Source of the DNA: a virus
Lineage: Duplodnaviria > Heunggongvirae > Uroviricota > Caudoviricetes
Reading direction: 5' to 3' (one strand)
Length of the DNA stretch: 64,000 nucleotides
Virus record (IMG/VR): IMGVR_UViG_3300028549_001428
Shown: one piece after another, positions 1 to 54,130 of the stretch
Position numbering within the stretch: position 1 is the stretch's first letter
Layout of the letters: each line of letters starts with the position of its first letter
Program-made: the position numbers and the translations under genes
The notes under the pieces: generated by a model
What the model was told of the DNA's origin: nothing
The model's input: the letters and a program-made list of their open reading frames with translations, nothing else
Databases searched by the model: none

Positions 1-353
1 CGGAATTTATCAATTCGTTGTTTGAAACATATAAGTAATGAATCATATTGAGAATCTAATTTTGATTTCGATTTCTCAAATTCATCAAGCTGACGCTGTT
101 CATATTTAGCCAACTCTTTTTTACGATGATCTTCTAATTGCTCGTCTGTTTTATAGAATATCTTAGTTCCATTGATATCCATTCCACGAATATGAGCGAA
201 ACCTTTACAGTGTAATGTGATAGTATCACCCACTTTAGGGACTACATTATACTTTTTATATAATACGAATCCATTACTGTCCGACATTATTGTATAGCAA
301 TCATCCGAGTCAGTTACCTTAGTAATGACATAATCATCTATATTATCTTTCAT
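1..353 (-). CDS. Hypothetical phage protein, 3'-partial (MKDNIDDYVITKV...KQRIDKF)
   Basis: ATG at 353 with GGAGAG SD at 357-362; frame open to the window edge; absent from the ORF track because it has no stop in the window. Confidence 0.8.
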   Translation of the reverse strand, partial: MKDNIDDYVITKVTDSDDCYTIMSDSNGFVLYKKYNVVPKVGDTITLHCKGFAHIRGMDINGTKIFYKTDEQLEDHRKKELAKYEQRQLDEFEKSKSKLDSQYDSLLICFKQRIDKF

Positions 354-365
354 ATTCTCTCCTAG

Positions 366-451
366 TGCGGATAAAGGGGTTCGAACCCTTGACGTGTATT
401 GCTACAAAAGGATTTAGAGTCCTCCGCTTTCGACCACTCAGCCATATCCGC
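366..451 (-). tRNA. Amber suppressor tRNA, anticodon CUA, long variable arm (Leu/Tyr-like body)
   Basis: Cloverleaf: acceptor GCGGATA/TATCCGC, discriminator A, D arm with GG, anticodon arm GAGGA-CT[CTA]AA-TCCTT (anticodon 415-417), variable stem TGTA-GCAA-TACA, T arm AAGGG-TTCGAAC-CCCTT; followed by CTA rather than an encoded CCA. Confidence 0.93.
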
Positions 452-478
452 AAAAAATGAGCCATTTCTGACTCATTT
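452..478 (-). terminator. Intrinsic terminator after the 1496->492 transcription unit
   Basis: AAATGAGTCA-GAAA-TGGCTCATTT hairpin with U-tract on the minus strand. Confidence 0.7.
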
Positions 479-480
479 GT

Positions 481-509
481 AATATAGTAAATTAATCTCT
501 TAGTGTCAA
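481..509 (-). promoter_or_regulatory. sigma70-type promoter for the suppressor tRNA
   Basis: TTGACA (509-504) N17 TATATT (486-481). Confidence 0.8.
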
Positions 510-773
510 TCGAATTTGTGATGATAGGTCTTTTACAACTTTACCAATGATTTCATCATTGAATGACTTGGAGTTCCAAGTATTTCCTTTGATAACATCA
601 TCAATTCGTTTGATAATCAACTGATCAATTCGATCTGCATAATTATATTCAGCAAGTGCCTTTTTAGCCTGTTGTGTAACAGATTCAACTACCCACATCT
701 GAATATCATCCTTGGTAATTCCAAGTTCATTATACATATAATTCTTAAACATAACCCATTTGCTATTATCCAT
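492..773 (-). CDS. Hypothetical protein (likely start MDNSKW)
   Basis: ORF track 492..812; ATG at 773 has a GAGAGG SD and overlaps the upstream stop. Confidence 0.7.
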   Translation of the reverse strand: MDNSKWVMFKNYMYNELGITKDDIQMWVVESVTQQAKKALAEYNYADRIDQLIIKRIDDVIKGNTWNSKSFNDEIIGKVVKDLSSQIRLTLRD

Positions 774-957
774 TGTTAGCCTCTCTATATTCAAGTTCAT
801 TAATAAATTCATCTACAAAGGTGTTAATGATATCATTATTTAGCGATGAATATATACTAGGACAGCATCCATGTCTACAGCCATCATCATATTGATAATA
901 CCATGCCTCTTCGTTTAATTTATTAATTAAAAGTTCCTTCAATAATGCCTTATCCAT
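766..957 (-). CDS. Small hypothetical protein with GCRHGCC motif
   Basis: ORF with strong AAGGAGG SD (964-970) overlapping the upstream stop. Confidence 0.7.
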   Translation of the reverse strand: MDKALLKELLINKLNEEAWYYQYDDGCRHGCCPSIYSSLNNDIINTFVDEFINELEYREANNG

Positions 958-969
958 GACAGACCTCCT

Positions 970-1389
970 TTATCTTATTGAGGATGCCAGTGATAAATCC
1001 ATTTTTTCATTGAAATCAATAGAATTCATTATTTCAGCGGAATCAATATACAAGGAAATCATACCCTTTAACTTATCCACATTCAAAGCCTTTTCAGTCT
1101 TTTCAGTCTTTTCAATTTCGGATAATTTGTTTCCCTTCAATAATGAATAGGCTACGTGCATATGTCTAGCATATGATTTAACGAAATACATAGCATATTG
1201 AGGATATGCAACATTTATGTTTAATGTTGTTGATATGGCTTTATATTTAGCCAATACAGCTTCTACTGCTGTTGTCGTGTCAGTTCTCTGTCATTCTTTG
1301 AATGCGTGTTTATACTGACGGGTGAATTCAGAAACCAACTTGATGTCAGCTTTGAATTTAGATAATGCGATTTTTAATTCATTGTTCAT
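970..1389 (-). CDS. Hypothetical phage protein (139 aa if read through; RHMHVAYSLLKG motif) with in-frame UGA at codon 33
   Basis: ATG 1389 with AAGGAG SD (1397-1402); reads MNNELKIALSKFKADIKLVSEFTRQYKHAFKE*QRTDTTTAVEAVLAKYK...; TGA at 1291-1293; the ORF track recovers only the downstream part from a TTG. Confidence 0.75.
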
Positions 1390-1396
1390 AATAATA

Positions 1397-1472
1397 CTCC
1401 TTAAATTTGTGAACTTTGTTTGTTTTGTTTTTATCGTTACAGTACAGCCGAAAACAAACCAAATTAAGGAGG
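1397..1472 (-). promoter_or_regulatory. SD-sequestering hairpin (translational attenuator)
   Basis: mRNA CUCCUUAAUUUG pairs with CAAAUUUAAGGAG, which contains the SD; inner GUUUGUUUU/AAAACAAAC pairing extends the stem. Confidence 0.75.
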
Positions 1473-1496
1473 GCGGTTGTTAAATACCTACATCAT
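1464..1496 (-). CDS. Leader peptide ORF M-M-(UAG)-V-F-N-N-R-P-P-UAA
   Basis: AAGGA SD at 1503-1507, then ATG ATG TAG GTA TTT AAC AAC CGC CCT CCT TAA; the Pro-Pro-stop codons form the anti-SD arm. Confidence 0.65.
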
Positions 1497-1535
1497 GGTA
1501 TATCCTTTTATTAAAATTATTTTCTTCATATTGGT

Positions 1536-1564
1536 AATATAGATTATTATCGCTTTCTTGTCAA
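1536..1564 (-). promoter_or_regulatory. sigma70-type promoter for the leader/UGA-gene unit
   Basis: TTGACA (1564-1559) N17 TATATT (1541-1536). Confidence 0.8.
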
Positions 1565-2026
1565 GACTTTATATAAAAAATCTTCTTTGTCTTCGGAATG
1601 CGTCAATTCCCACTTAGATTCATCAAATGATGGAAAGTATATATCACCATCATAATCACCCTTTATCTCAGAAATATGCATTTCATTTATAATATCAGCA
1701 TCTAATACTGACTTATACAACATACCACCACCAATAAAGAAAGTAGGACTAGACTTGTACTTATACAAATTCCACGCAGATTCCAACGTAGGAACTACTT
1801 TCACATCGTCGCCATGCTCAAACTTGGACGATGATATCACTATATTGTTGCGATTTAGTAGACCATTAGGGCGACCTAAAGATACAAAAGTATTCTTTCC
1901 CATCACAATAGAAGAATAGCTAGTAAGTGCTTTAAGATGCCTTAAATCGCTAGGTATATGCCAGGGCAGTATTCCATTCTTACCAATGACTCTATCTTTA
2001 GTCATAGCGACAATCAAGTTACTCAT
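1547..2026 (-). CDS. folA: Dihydrofolate reductase
   Basis: LIVAM..RVIG.NG.LPWHIPSDL, MGKNTF, RNNIVIS, IGGG, GDIYFP motifs. Confidence 0.95.
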   Translation of the reverse strand: MSNLIVAMTKDRVIGKNGILPWHIPSDLRHLKALTSYSSIVMGKNTFVSLGRPNGLLNRNNIVISSSKFEHGDDVKVVPTLESAWNLYKYKSSPTFFIGGGMLYKSVLDADIINEMHISEIKGDYDGDIYFPSFDESKWELTHSEDKEDFLYKVLTRKR

Positions 2027-2087
2027 TATGCATTTCCTGTGGCAGAACCACCATATTTTATATTTATCATTGCATTAATATAGTAAA

Positions 2088-2525
2088 TTATTTGCGGTTT
2101 GGCTCGACTGCAACATAACTTAATCGATAATCTGGTAAAATTATTCCATCAGCACCTGCAACACCATAGCCAACAGGGAAAAATTCAACCCCTGCAATAC
2201 CAGACGTTTGAATTAGTCCAGCCAACATATTACCATCACGAGTTGTTTTACATTCACAATTTATTATAAGAGATGAATTCACAATAGAAGCACCCATTAC
2301 ATAAGCCATTGCTTTTTTATCCCAAGGTTCTGATAATGGAATGTTTTTCATCTTCCGTTCTACTGGATTCATTTCTTGTATAATAATTCTTGGTTGCAAT
2401 GTAAACCGTTCCATCAGTTTATTCAATACATGCATAGGATAAATGTTTCCATCTATTGTTGGCATACCTGCAACCATTAACACAGCACTAAATTTATATC
2501 CTTCGACCTTAGTTTTTGGTGCCAT
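2088..2525 (-). CDS. Prohead-protease-like protein (T4 gp21 fold), apparently lacking catalytic residues
   Basis: DGNIYP..VL, TRDG..L..L, PVGYG, DYRL..V.VEP resemble gp21 NGR.YP, TP.G, SSRG.G and D.V..P blocks. Confidence 0.5.
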   Translation of the reverse strand: MAPKTKVEGYKFSAVLMVAGMPTIDGNIYPMHVLNKLMERFTLQPRIIIQEMNPVERKMKNIPLSEPWDKKAMAYVMGASIVNSSLIINCECKTTRDGNMLAGLIQTSGIAGVEFFPVGYGVAGADGIILPDYRLSYVAVEPNRK

Positions 2526-3204
2526 GTTCTACTCCATGCAATGCAAATTTTCTCATACGACTAACACAACGAGCTATGATAAATTTCAATCTACTTGAAT
2601 TAATACCTATTTTTATCGATAGGTCTTTTATGTTATAATTTCTGGATAGTCTTAAAATTTCCAAGTCTTCTTTTGCTTGGTCATTTAATTTACCATTAGC
2701 TTCATACACTTCTATAAGTGCATCTAATTCAATAGTACAATTTTCATCATGTGGCTGTACAAATGCTTCCATATCACCCATGTTAGAACCGTCTTGATGT
2801 TCGTTATAGTCATTAAGATCGCTATAATCTATTTTTACATCTTTCTTTTTCATAACAGGAACATGTATCAAATCATTATTGTAATTATACCAGTTCTGTA
2901 CTAAACCTCTAATGGTTTGCATTGCATAATGATAAAAGGGCATTCCTACTGCTGGATCATATGTTTCAGTTGCTTTACATAAGCCTTCATATGTGAAAGA
3001 CATTATAGAAGCCAACGGCTGATTATAATTGTATTGGTAATATATTAGATAAATCAGACGAGCATTATTTTTTAATAATTTTTGTAGATTTGCATCCTTC
3101 TTATCACTCTTGGATGGGTCTTGAATATCCTTGACTAATATATCATTAATCTCAGCACCATTGGATGGGAAGGGATGTCTTTTTATAAATTCTTCAGGAG
3201 TCAT
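2509..3204 (-). CDS. Phage sigma-70-family RNA polymerase sigma factor
   Basis: Region 2-like NARLI...EGLCKATETYDP..G.PF..YA..TIR...IHVP and C-terminal HTH-like region 4. Confidence 0.8.
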   Translation of the reverse strand: MTPEEFIKRHPFPSNGAEINDILVKDIQDPSKSDKKDANLQKLLKNNARLIYLIYYQYNYNQPLASIMSFTYEGLCKATETYDPAVGMPFYHYAMQTIRGLVQNWYNYNNDLIHVPVMKKKDVKIDYSDLNDYNEHQDGSNMGDMEAFVQPHDENCTIELDALIEVYEANGKLNDQAKEDLEILRLSRNYNIKDLSIKIGINSSRLKFIIARCVSRMRKFALHGVEHGTKN

Positions 3205-8111: not shown

Positions 8112-8140
8112 AATATAGATAAAAAGTTTGGTTATGTCAA
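8112..8140 (-). promoter_or_regulatory. sigma70-type promoter of ligase
   Basis: TTGACA N17 TATATT. Confidence 0.8.
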
Positions 8141-10997: not shown

Positions 10998-11183
10998 TTA
11001 TTTTTCATATTTTATTTTTGAATTACATGAGTGTTCTTGTGCATATCTAAGCACCTCACAAAAATCCAACATTTGTTGATGACGCACTTTCTTCTCGATC
11101 TCATATTGTTCTTCGGTAATGCCCATTATTTCTAGCATTCTCTTTTTGTTATTTTTAAGTTCATCTTCACTTAATTGCATCAA
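10998..11183 (-). CDS. Small hypothetical protein
   Basis: ORF overlapping the RNA ligase stop. Confidence 0.5.
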   Translation of the reverse strand: MMQLSEDELKNNKKRMLEIMGITEEQYEIEKKVRHQQMLDFCEVLRYAQEHSCNSKIKYEK

Positions 11184-11841
11184 TCATTCCATTTTTAATT
11201 ATTTCTTTATTCATCCAATGATCGGTGTCATCATTCACATGACCTTTACGCACAAATTTAGCTATGTATTGAGCAAATTGCTCATCATCGTGTTTAGAAT
11301 CAGAAAAATCAACGGTAAACGAATCAGCTATGCGTATTACATAACCTTCTTGACGTTCTAAATCCATGTTAGCCACAAGTGTTTTTAATATTTTTTCATC
11401 AAAAATACCACGATACAGAACAGGAACTGCTGTAATTCCTAATTCATCGAACCACCTCATAGTTTCATCCCATGATTTGCATTCATTTCCTTCCCATAAT
11501 GAAAACCCCATAAAATATGATGGTAATGCATCATATCCAATAGAATGCCTAGCATATAGATTTTCACCACATACTCTCCAACCATAAGGAAGTTTAAAAT
11601 ATCGTTCAGACCAAAATTTCTTTAACCAATTGCGAGATGGATGATTATTAGAATCCAAAGAACGAGCATGTGTATATCCATCAAAATAAGCCGATGAATT
11701 TTCACCATCTTTTTTCTCGGAACAAACTATCTCTTTACCAATAAACTGATCGATTGACTTCAATATCTTATCATCACGTGATGCCCCTTGGCTCCACGGT
11801 AAATGCGATGTTTTAGGATATTTTACTACATAGTTATTCAT
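11167..11841 (-). CDS. RNA ligase family nucleotidyltransferase
   Basis: KYPKTSHLPWS, EKKDGEN (motif I), CGEN, EGYVIR, AKFVR; likely start MNNYVVK. Confidence 0.88.
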   Translation of the reverse strand: MNNYVVKYPKTSHLPWSQGASRDDKILKSIDQFIGKEIVCSEKKDGENSSAYFDGYTHARSLDSNNHPSRNWLKKFWSERYFKLPYGWRVCGENLYARHSIGYDALPSYFMGFSLWEGNECKSWDETMRWFDELGITAVPVLYRGIFDEKILKTLVANMDLERQEGYVIRIADSFTVDFSDSKHDDEQFAQYIAKFVRKGHVNDDTDHWMNKEIIKNGMIDAIK

Positions 11842-11879
11842 AATTACCAAATATAACAATTTTTTACTATATTTCCAAT

Positions 11880-12215
11880 ATGCGCATACGAAATTTACCA
11901 AAAACCGATTGGGATATATCCCTGTATAACACCGACTACTATGGTTATGGTGATGTCGATGTGTTTACATCAAAAGAAAAAAACATTGGGGAACGAGTCA
12001 TTTGCCTGTTTAGAAAAAAAGACCTTGAATATTATACAAATGATTCATGCACAAAAACAGTATTCGCTATCCTATGTAATAGCTGTGGGGTAAAATCGGG
12101 GATAAATGAACTTCGGGGATTGGTAGCAGGTCAAATAGTTCCAATTCAATTTAATGGTGAGTATAGTCCTCAAATTCCTCTAATTTGGATACAAAAACGT
12201 TTCTGGGAAATGTAA
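11880..12215 (+). CDS. Hypothetical protein
   Basis: 111-aa ORF divergent from the RNA ligase. Confidence 0.5.
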   Translation: MRIRNLPKTDWDISLYNTDYYGYGDVDVFTSKEKNIGERVICLFRKKDLEYYTNDSCTKTVFAILCNSCGVKSGINELRGLVAGQIVPIQFNGEYSPQIPLIWIQKRFWEM

Positions 12216-12229
12216 GATTCATTATTCCA

Positions 12230-12257
12230 TTGACAATTCGGCTGTTTTTTCTATATT
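12230..12257 (+). promoter_or_regulatory. sigma70-type early promoter
   Basis: TTGACA N16 TATATT. Confidence 0.7.
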
Positions 12258-52900: not shown

Positions 52901-54130
52901 GTGAACTACCCATGAGTTAAATGCTCATTAGCTTCTGACTTCATAGATAGTTGCGTATTGCTACGGCTAACACCATCTCCATCAGTGTACTCGCCAGTTC
53001 CTGACGAGAGAAGGCTTACACCTTCTGTTAATATATTTTTAGCAGCATTTACATCTCGATCATGTACAGATCCGCATGATTCACATACCCATTCACGATC
53101 CGACAATTTCATATCAGATTTTATCCAACCACAATCATTACATGTTTTAGAAGATGGAAAGAATCTATTGATTGTTATAATTTGCTTGTCATTCCATTCC
53201 GCTTTATAACGGATCATATTGGCAAACATCCCCCATACACAATCTGATATATGTTTAGCTAACTTATGGTTTTTCACCATACTTTTTACATTTAGATCTT
53301 CCAAGCAAATCAGATCGTATTCTCTGATTAACTTAGTTGAGATTTTATGTAAATTGTCTTTTCGTGAATTTGATATCTTCTCGTGGATACGAGCAACCTT
53401 CAATCTTTGTTTTTCGGATTGATGACTACCGTTAGTCTTACGAGATAGATGTTGTTGTGCTACTTTTAATTCTTTTTCATATTGTTTCGTGTAACGAGGA
53501 TTCTTGAACTTCGTTCCATCACTCGTTATACAAAAATCTTTTATACCTAAATCAATACCAACTGATTTACCTGTATGAGCCATTGGTTCATGTGTAGTTG
53601 CTACTAGTATAGATACAAAATATTGATTCCTAGAATCTCTTGAGAATGTGCATTGGCGAATCTCGCCTTTAAATTCTCGTTGTTTTATTAACTTTATACC
53701 ATCATTAAATTTAGGTACATAAATCTTGTTTGTTTCAACTGTTATATGTTGAGGAACACGAAATGAATTCTTGGATCTTTTAGATTTAAAGTTCGGAAAC
53801 TCAGCGTTTCCACGATAGAAATTCAGATAAGCAGCTTCCAAATTCTTCAGCGTCTGCTGTAATGTCTGGGAATTGATTTCTTTCAGCCAAATCGTACTTT
53901 CGTCTTTCTTCAATTTGGTTAGCTTATTAGCCTGTGCTACATAATTATCAGATTTCTTCGTTTCTCTATATTGATTCTTCCTCTCGTTGAGGAAATAATT
54001 ATACACATAACGAACTGAACCAAAGTGCTTATTCAACAAAATCTTCTGTTGCTCACTTGGTTCTATTCGATACTTATATGATTTCAATATCTCTTTCATC
54101 TATAACATAATATATGTTATTTTTATTCTG
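52901..54130 (-). mobile_element. IS200/IS605-family solo-tnpB element (IS1341-like); left boundary approximate
   Basis: tnpB without tnpA; right end GAAGC...GGGTAGTTCAC at 52901; inserted between divergent late genes. Confidence 0.8.
52906..54099 (-). CDS. tnpB: TnpB RNA-guided endonuclease
   Basis: HTH KSYKYRIEP, RuvC GIDLG / CLEDL / DRDVNAA intact, Zn ribbon CNDC..CESC. Confidence 0.95.
   Translation of the reverse strand: MKEILKSYKYRIEPSEQQKILLNKHFGSVRYVYNYFLNERKNQYRETKKSDNYVAQANKLTKLKKDESTIWLKEINSQTLQQTLKNLEAAYLNFYRGNAEFPNFKSKRSKNSFRVPQHITVETNKIYVPKFNDGIKLIKQREFKGEIRQCTFSRDSRNQYFVSILVATTHEPMAHTGKSVGIDLGIKDFCITSDGTKFKNPRYTKQYEKELKVAQQHLSRKTNGSHQSEKQRLKVARIHEKISNSRKDNLHKISTKLIREYDLICLEDLNVKSMVKNHKLAKHISDCVWGMFANMIRYKAEWNDKQIITINRFFPSSKTCNDCGWIKSDMKLSDREWVCESCGSVHDRDVNAAKNILTEGVSLLSSGTGEYTDGDGVSRSNTQLSMKSEANEHLTHG

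Follow-up and report, generated by a model that had tools for sequence, protein, structure and literature searches.

In the ermC/ErmCL, cat, and secM-secA systems, the position of a ribosome on a short leader decides whether the Shine–Dalgarno (SD) sequence of the downstream gene is paired. The SecM class is also covered in PMC12992588. The input to such leader-peptide attenuators is drug- or force-dependent stalling of elongation, whereas the predicted input for the phage locus described here is termination versus readthrough at an amber (UAG) codon. Arrest peptides of the RAPP/RGPP type (ApdA, ApdP, and ApcA) are similar to the phage leader in that they carry Arg and Pro-Pro at the leader C-terminus. 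However, in the part of the source drawn on here, these peptides end in RAPP, RGPP, RAGP, or RAPG, whereas the phage leader ends in R-P-P-stop with no residue between, is 10–11 aa long, and lies behind an amber codon (PMC12992588). PepNL of Escherichia coli is likewise a natural small ORF that depends on readthrough of its own stop codon. In the excerpted account of that system, a UGA codon read by a host tRNA-Trp relieves arrest by a 14-aa peptide, no suppressor tRNA takes part, and no anti-SD tail appears (PMC11890864).

Engineered amber (Uaa) switches, with trp/tna leaders, are also alike in that a leader UAG and a CUA tRNA make downstream expression conditional (PMC6412442). Those devices are synthetic, act on transcription, and employ an orthogonal synthetase, whereas the arrangement here is natural and is predicted to act on translation initiation via an anti-SD hairpin. 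Only synthetic amber-gated leaders, and no natural ones, were found among the titles and abstract openings of open-access papers.

Recoded phages also carry suppressor tRNAs, for which a role in expression timing has been proposed, and standard-code relatives with a suppressor are known (10.1101/2021.08.26.457843). The tRNA here is phage-borne as well but differs in that the examined DNA holds no recoded genes, the only conserved target found for it is one regulatory codon, and it is Tyr-like rather than Gln-like. In the excerpted source, the presence of suppressor tRNAs in standard-code phages has no explanation and is mostly taken for a stage on the way to recoding (10.1101/2021.08.26.457843). 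If true, a conserved regulatory amber codon would provide such a tRNA with a function and explain why selection retains it. Such a codon would also constitute a natural form of a switch otherwise known in engineered form, and a leader control whose input is termination status. The module is small, with about 110 nt of leader and an 86-nt tRNA.

The window analyzed here is a 64-kb stretch of a 365,647-nt contig from a tailed jumbo phage and carries baseplate, tail-fibre, NAD ligase, RNA ligase, sigma-like, and dihydrofolate reductase (DHFR) genes. By sequence, all parts of the module lie on the minus strand, as follows.

1536..1564, minus strand: promoter-like site P1, TTGACA-17-TATATT, at the end of the DHFR gene; score 11/12, activity predicted
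1503..1507, minus strand: leader SD, AAGGA; a purine-rich SD lies at the matching place in L001 and L003
1464..1496, minus strand: leader ORF, with ATG at 1496, ATG at 1493, TAG at 1490-1488, seven sense codons, and TAA at 1466-1464
1397..1471, minus strand: predicted anti-SD hairpin between the Pro-Pro-stop codons and the gene X SD (CUCCUU with AAGGAG)
950..1389, minus strand: gene X (RHxHxAY-LLKG family), a broken copy whose present reading frame is 1389-970
766..957, minus strand: 63-aa gene with a CxxGCC motif, 3' of gene X also in L001 and L003
492..770, minus strand: 92-aa accessory gene, overlapping the stop of the 63-aa gene
481..509, minus strand: promoter-like site P2, 5' of the tRNA; score 11/12, present in L001 and L003
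452..476, minus strand: terminator-like hairpin with a U run, 3' of P2 and 5' of the tRNA; −9.0 kcal/mol
366..451, minus strand: tRNA with a long variable arm, anticodon CUA at 417-415, G1-C72, A73, and no encoded CCA

We propose, with a probability of about 0.6, that the leader is a translational attenuator, namely an ON switch driven by amber readthrough. By default, RF1 would terminate at the UAG after two to three residues, leaving the hairpin intact and gene X off. If the phage tRNA(CUA), which probably carries Tyr, outcompetes RF1 at the UAG, the ribosome would reach the anti-SD sequence and probably linger at Pro-Pro-stop, allowing translation of gene X together with the overlapping CxxGCC gene. 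A C-terminal Pro-Pro is known to hamper termination in E. coli (PMC3834316). The start of the CxxGCC gene overlaps the end that gene X has in intact homologues. The 92-aa gene gave no tblastn match in the relative G001 or in L001.

The promoter, UAG leader, SD hairpin, UGA-interrupted frame, two small genes, and CUA tRNA described in the initial annotation are all found where it placed them. It had further described a terminator followed by a separately promoted tRNA. Both elements are present, but in the window their order is the opposite, with P2 (509-481) preceding the hairpin (476-452); the order given earlier occurs in L003.

Two further loci, L001 and L003, each from a distantly related phage, carry the same arrangement. 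In both, the DHFR gene is followed by the promoter motif, at the place matching P1, an SD, an ATG, a UAG at codon 3 or 4, and a seven-codon tail, after which come a hairpin extending to the next SD, an intact gene X, the CxxGCC gene, a second promoter, and the CUA tRNA. A short ORF with its own SD thus lies upstream of gene X in three of three loci. The window leader reads Met-Met-UAG, followed on readthrough by V-F-N-N-R-P-P-stop, that of L001 reads MM-stop-VYRTRPP-stop, and that of L003 reads MSY-stop-VYHARPP-stop. All three share a readthrough tail of the form V-(F/Y)-x-x-R-P-P-stop with exactly seven sense codons. The leader of L003 has one additional codon before the UAG, and because the insert is exactly one codon, the leader frame is kept.

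These similarities persist across considerable divergence. Gene X of L001 and L003 is 46% and about 35% identical, respectively, to the window copy. Across the neighbouring DHFR and sigma-like genes, only 4 of 53 four-fold sites and 58 of 385 codons agree among the window, L001, and L003. Silent sites are therefore near saturation among the three. TAG is rare as a gene stop (3/45 in the window, 9/93 in G001, and 3/22 in L001), yet it is the leader stop in all three loci, and TAA, the usual stop here, never occurs at this position. In the closer contigs that cover the leader (two X5 and one X8), no change is listed at the TAG in three of three. Runs with small shares were left out, and X10 contributed no contig. 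One 151-nt X5 contig, which at depth 2 is weak evidence alone, keeps the TAG and shows only synonymous changes in the RPP codons, two in the Arg codon and one in a Pro codon. In this same contig the other tail codons change freely, with Val, Asn, and Asn altered. Minigenes with an SD, an ATG, and an early TAG do arise often by chance (6 in the window, 17 in G001, and 3 in L001), and a seven-codon RPP tail after an early TAG is found only at this leader in the window, G001, and L001 sources.

The case for the switch thus draws on a promoter motif, an SD and ATG, an early UAG, the tail, the anti-SD complementarity, and the CUA tRNA, all common to three phages, and it rests on three full loci, all of one clade. 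A search for homologous loci had been suggested earlier as a check on the proposal. The leader, the anti-SD pairing, and the linked CUA tRNA are conserved in L001 and L003, but the internal UGA is not. Judging from these alignments, the amber leader and suppressor-tRNA module is conserved.

A leaderless 13-codon ORF starting at ATG 1529 and reaching the UAG is open in the window and L001. It was rejected as a conserved start because L003 has TTG and an early stop there, and because one extra nucleotide is inserted at 1505 in an X8 contig.

Folding predictions indicate how such a switch might operate. The whole 156-nt leader folds no better than shuffled sequences (z 0.21). The window hairpin alone is predicted at −15.6 kcal/mol (z −2.0), with 19 of 500 shuffles as stable, although its bounds were picked after seeing the fold. 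For L001 the corresponding values are −16.6 kcal/mol and z −3.2, and for L003 they are −17.6 kcal/mol and z −3.6, with 3 of 500 shuffles as stable in each case. The hairpin arms differ in sequence among the three loci yet are still predicted to pair. We then modeled the ribosome as covering 18 nt upstream and 9–15 nt downstream. With UAG in the A site, the predicted probability that GGAG of the gene X SD is unpaired is 0.005 in the window, 0.01–0.11 in L001, and 0.002 in L003. With the ribosome at the final stop, it is 0.91, 0.62–0.66, and 0.94–0.96, respectively. The first paired hairpin base lies 16 nt past the UAG, and most of the modeled fall in the cost of opening the SD is reached by the third codon past it. 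The switch is weakest in L001, where the opening cost declines from 4.0–4.6 to 2.5 kcal/mol. These models suggest that ribosome position sets the accessibility of the gene X SD in three of three loci. A ribosome terminating at the UAG would halt short of the hairpin and leave the SD paired, whereas one about three codons past the UAG would melt the hairpin.

It is also conceivable, although we consider it unlikely, that the UAG is the plain stop of a two- to three-codon minigene or part of an RNA element, that the hairpin is opened by other means such as a protein or reinitiation, and that the RPP sequence is a by-product of anti-SD pairing. The tail sequence CCTCCTT is the complement of the SD, and because CCTCCT is an ideal anti-SD, conservation of Pro-Pro is partly explained by pairing. 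The Arg codon, however, lies outside the predicted pairing and is nevertheless kept through synonymous changes, and the tail has seven sense codons in every locus. Conservation of the TAG may also be partly structural, as a small hairpin can enclose the start codon via the GG after TA, this dinucleotide being complementary to a CC immediately 5' of the ATG in three of three loci. Even so, the constant absence of TAA from the UAG position is not what a plain stop would predict. A 14-nt hairpin-loop motif is identical in the window (1437-1450, minus strand) and L001 (9947-9960), resembling a protein site and possibly being one, but it is lost in L003.

The tRNA at 366-451 scores 63.5 bits against the Rfam tRNA model and is the sole tRNA in the 64-kb window, and a tRNA of the same kind is the sole one in 101 kb of G001. 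ARAGORN labels it as tRNA-Pyl, a label that follows from the CUA anticodon alone. Members of the tRNA-Pyl family have a short variable loop, no D-loop GG, and no canonical T-loop. We rejected the label because a long variable arm, a D-loop GG, and a UUCGA T-loop are present.

In all three loci, tRNA(CUA) lies less than 1.1 kb downstream of the leader. When the three tRNA copies are compared, pairing holds in 98% of cells, and 5 of 20 pairs differ on both sides, a number matched by none of 500 shuffles. These paired stem changes, with CUA kept, indicate that the RNA is maintained as a tRNA. The tRNA-Tyr identity elements are A73 and G1-C72 (PMC9976931). All three copies have A73, two have G1-C72, and L001 has G1-U72. 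Among six phage records matched by the tRNA over about 40% of the query, three are annotated as tRNA-Tyr (two being the same phage), one as tRNA-Ser, and two are unannotated. A73 is also a Leu feature, and a Leu identity would be compatible. Overall, the tRNA is likely a Tyr-derived amber suppressor similar to supF.

In the window (452-509, minus strand) and in L001 (10638-10695), the tRNA is separated from its promoter by a terminator-like hairpin, whereas in L003 (14046-14118) such a hairpin lies upstream of the tRNA promoter instead. The L001 hairpin, at the matching position, is predicted at −14.2 kcal/mol. The terminator scan did not list the window hairpin at 452-476. Output of the tRNA in the window and L001 may be attenuated by the interposed hairpin.

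These features bear on a further reading, rather unlikely in our estimate, in which the mechanics are the same but the input is slow or depleted RF1, arising from stress, host defence, or phage takeover, and the tRNA is a passenger or sets the baseline. The folding geometry is indifferent to which factor reads the UAG, the tRNA has its own promoter with a terminator-like hairpin in front in two of three loci, and PepNL demonstrates that leader control can depend on stop-codon readthrough by a host tRNA (PMC11890864, as excerpted). A passenger tRNA would nonetheless leave unaccounted for the presence of a CUA tRNA with compensatory stem changes beside the leader in three of three loci. Nor does such a role fit well with its being the only tRNA in the window and G001 sequences, where no other in-frame TAG user was found among the matches listed.

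The examined DNA uses the standard genetic code (code 11). Of 45 gene stops in the window, 35 are TAA, 3 are TAG, and 7 are TGA. Reading TAG as sense raises coding density from 0.894 to 0.901 in the window and from 0.868 to 0.901 in G001, and the gain is smaller than that from reading TGA as sense. No internal stops occur in 48 alignments to G001 or in 14 to L001, and the baseplate, sheath-related, and tail-fibre genes of the window are intact in code 11. The statement in the initial annotation that the phage is not recoded here is therefore borne out over the DNA covered, namely the 64-kb window plus 101 kb from G001 and 20 kb from L001.

One in-frame TAG lies two codons ahead of the start of the glycosyltransferase-like gene or an adjacent gene, just upstream of 20284 on the minus strand, and the resulting IMYIXGMK (with TAG as X) is common to G001. 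This TAG overlaps a TATATT motif and probably belongs to promoter sequence.

Recoding of TAG might instead occur in genes outside the examined DNA, such that the tRNA serves that code and the leader only reports the switch. Two points favor this reading: the examined share is 64 of 365.6 kb, and the in-frame stops of recoded phages cluster in structural and lysis genes (10.1101/2021.08.26.457843). However, in the part of that source drawn on here only TAG-to-Gln reassignment is seen, whereas the window tRNA looks Tyr-type, and the intact structural genes and stop-free alignments make this explanation quite improbable.

The window copy of gene X bears several lesions. It has a nonsense codon, TGA, at 1293-1291; a 1-nt deletion at 1001, which leads to an early stop at 972-970 and loss of the tail; and a 9-nt duplication near 1090. 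A protein search returned 10 matches among 40 candidates, of which nine are full-length (141–156 aa, 46–94% identity) and the tenth is the window's own 94-aa fragment. All 21 near-full-length homologues (the nine plus twelve cluster members) have Trp at codon 33, where the window has UGA, and the conserved C-terminal tail. In L003, Ala occupies the UGA-equivalent position, and the tail varies too. Among contigs compared over 200-2200 (rows listed), X3 and X6 have TGG at the UGA codon, and X2, X3, and X6 have one extra base at 1001, such that the frame continues into the tail, and lack the 9-nt duplication. The 139-aa readthrough product postulated earlier is thus not the true form of the protein, as its homologues have 141–156 aa with a conserved tail that is lost here by the 1-nt deletion.

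Assembly error had been raised as a possible source of the TAG and TGA codons. The X1 contig (93,546 nt, depth 67.8, from a microbial mat metagenome) shows no differences over 200-2200, so the stops are not peculiar to one assembler, although X1 possibly derives from the same source as the window. Among 38 G001 and 13 L001 genes matched in the window, no orthologue other than gene X is interrupted by a stop; in the other four alignments flagged for a stop, it precedes a start or is a true stop.

These comparisons indicate that the UGA is very probably a private Trp-to-stop mutation that lies outside the design of the module. Because a nonsense codon and a frameshift occur together in one lineage, the window copy of gene X is most likely a pseudogene. 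UGA followed by C is a leaky stop context, and it is possible that UGA leakage yields slight amounts of a full-length-like product. The AND gate proposed in the initial annotation, in which both UAG and UGA must be read through, is very improbable. In its favor, the UGA is in frame with C as the next base, is identical in the X1 assembly, and aligns with a Trp that a natural leak would insert. Against it, all 21 near homologues have Trp rather than Cys at this position, X3 and X6 have TGG, homologues lack the internal stop, and the same gene carries a frameshift and a 9-nt duplication absent from X2, X3, and X6.

Gene X gave no PHROG, Pfam, NCBIfam, or PDB sequence match that would indicate its function; its Atlas matches all scored below 0.9 and were left out. 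Pfam PF01981 (PTH2) is absent from gene X itself (P0002). A profile search yielded 43 gene X representatives, 37 of which carry an H-x-AY..G motif. Six of the 43 are fused to a C-terminal domain, which matches Pfam PTH2 in four and a PHROG hydrolase family in two. The PTH2 matches fall only in the C-terminal part of these longer relatives, with E values of 9e-5 to 8e-3, one of them reaching the gathering cut-off. Translation of two-codon minigenes releases peptidyl-tRNA and requires Pth, a behavior that would suit a leader whose UAG is not suppressed. A stand-alone Pth2-like gene and TilS (L048 5009-5518 and 7093-8004) occur in G001 about 30 kb away, indicating that the clade has translation-related enzymes, whereas neither the window nor L001 yielded a stand-alone Pth2-like gene. 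Jumbo phages often encode Pth2, for which a part in ribosome rescue has been proposed (PMC7824862).

It is therefore possible, if doubtful, that gene X assists a Pth2-type ribosome rescue that is needed while stops are read through. The dispensability of gene X in the window phage argues against a vital role. We consider only tentatively the combined proposal that the suppressor tRNA drives a UAG-readthrough sensor, which would turn on a Pth2-partner ribosome-rescue protein when UAG termination fails.

Further examples of the module were sought in several collections. No additional locus was found in viral_contigs with P0001 or A1, and searches there with A2, A7, and relaxed motif scans returned only the L003 contig again plus chance matches. 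L002, L005, and L006 were rejected as chance matches with no gene X. Among 41 loci with the CUA-loop pattern, gene X occurs only at L014, which is the L003 contig. The metagenome_contigs search gave one locus, L001, and no further locus was found in genome_contigs or annotated phages. Sequence look-up found no look-alike of the window locus, and in an Rfam search over 1-3000 only the tRNA passed, with no RNA family in the leader. Many unrelated viral contigs (L007-L047) carry CUA tRNAs with long variable arms, several of them paired with a short-arm CUA tRNA.

The window scan showed no overall excess of promoter-like sites (20 observed versus 24.2 expected). Copies of the P1-type motif number 6 in the window, 13 in G001, and 6 in L001. 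In the window, the motif TTGAC(A/T)-N16-18-TATATT occurs at 12230 on the plus strand and at 8140, 5050, 4461, 1564, and 509 on the minus strand, and C nearly always precedes TATATT.

Several other features of the surrounding DNA were observed. One X3 contig and one X6 contig lack the 63-aa CxxGCC gene (765-950), the sequences on either side being joined with an 8-nt overlap, and a second X3 contig carries a replacement for it. An RNA ligase gene (11167-11901, minus strand) lies about 10 kb from the tRNA. Two gene pairs on the minus strand, 10867-9971 with 9961-8777 and 52796-50118 with 50114-44955, are mutually in frame and separated by TAA plus 9 or 3 nt. Finally, a transposase-family gene at 52906-54099 (minus strand) is 85% identical to its G001 copy, far above the adjoining genes, which suggests that it was recently mobile.
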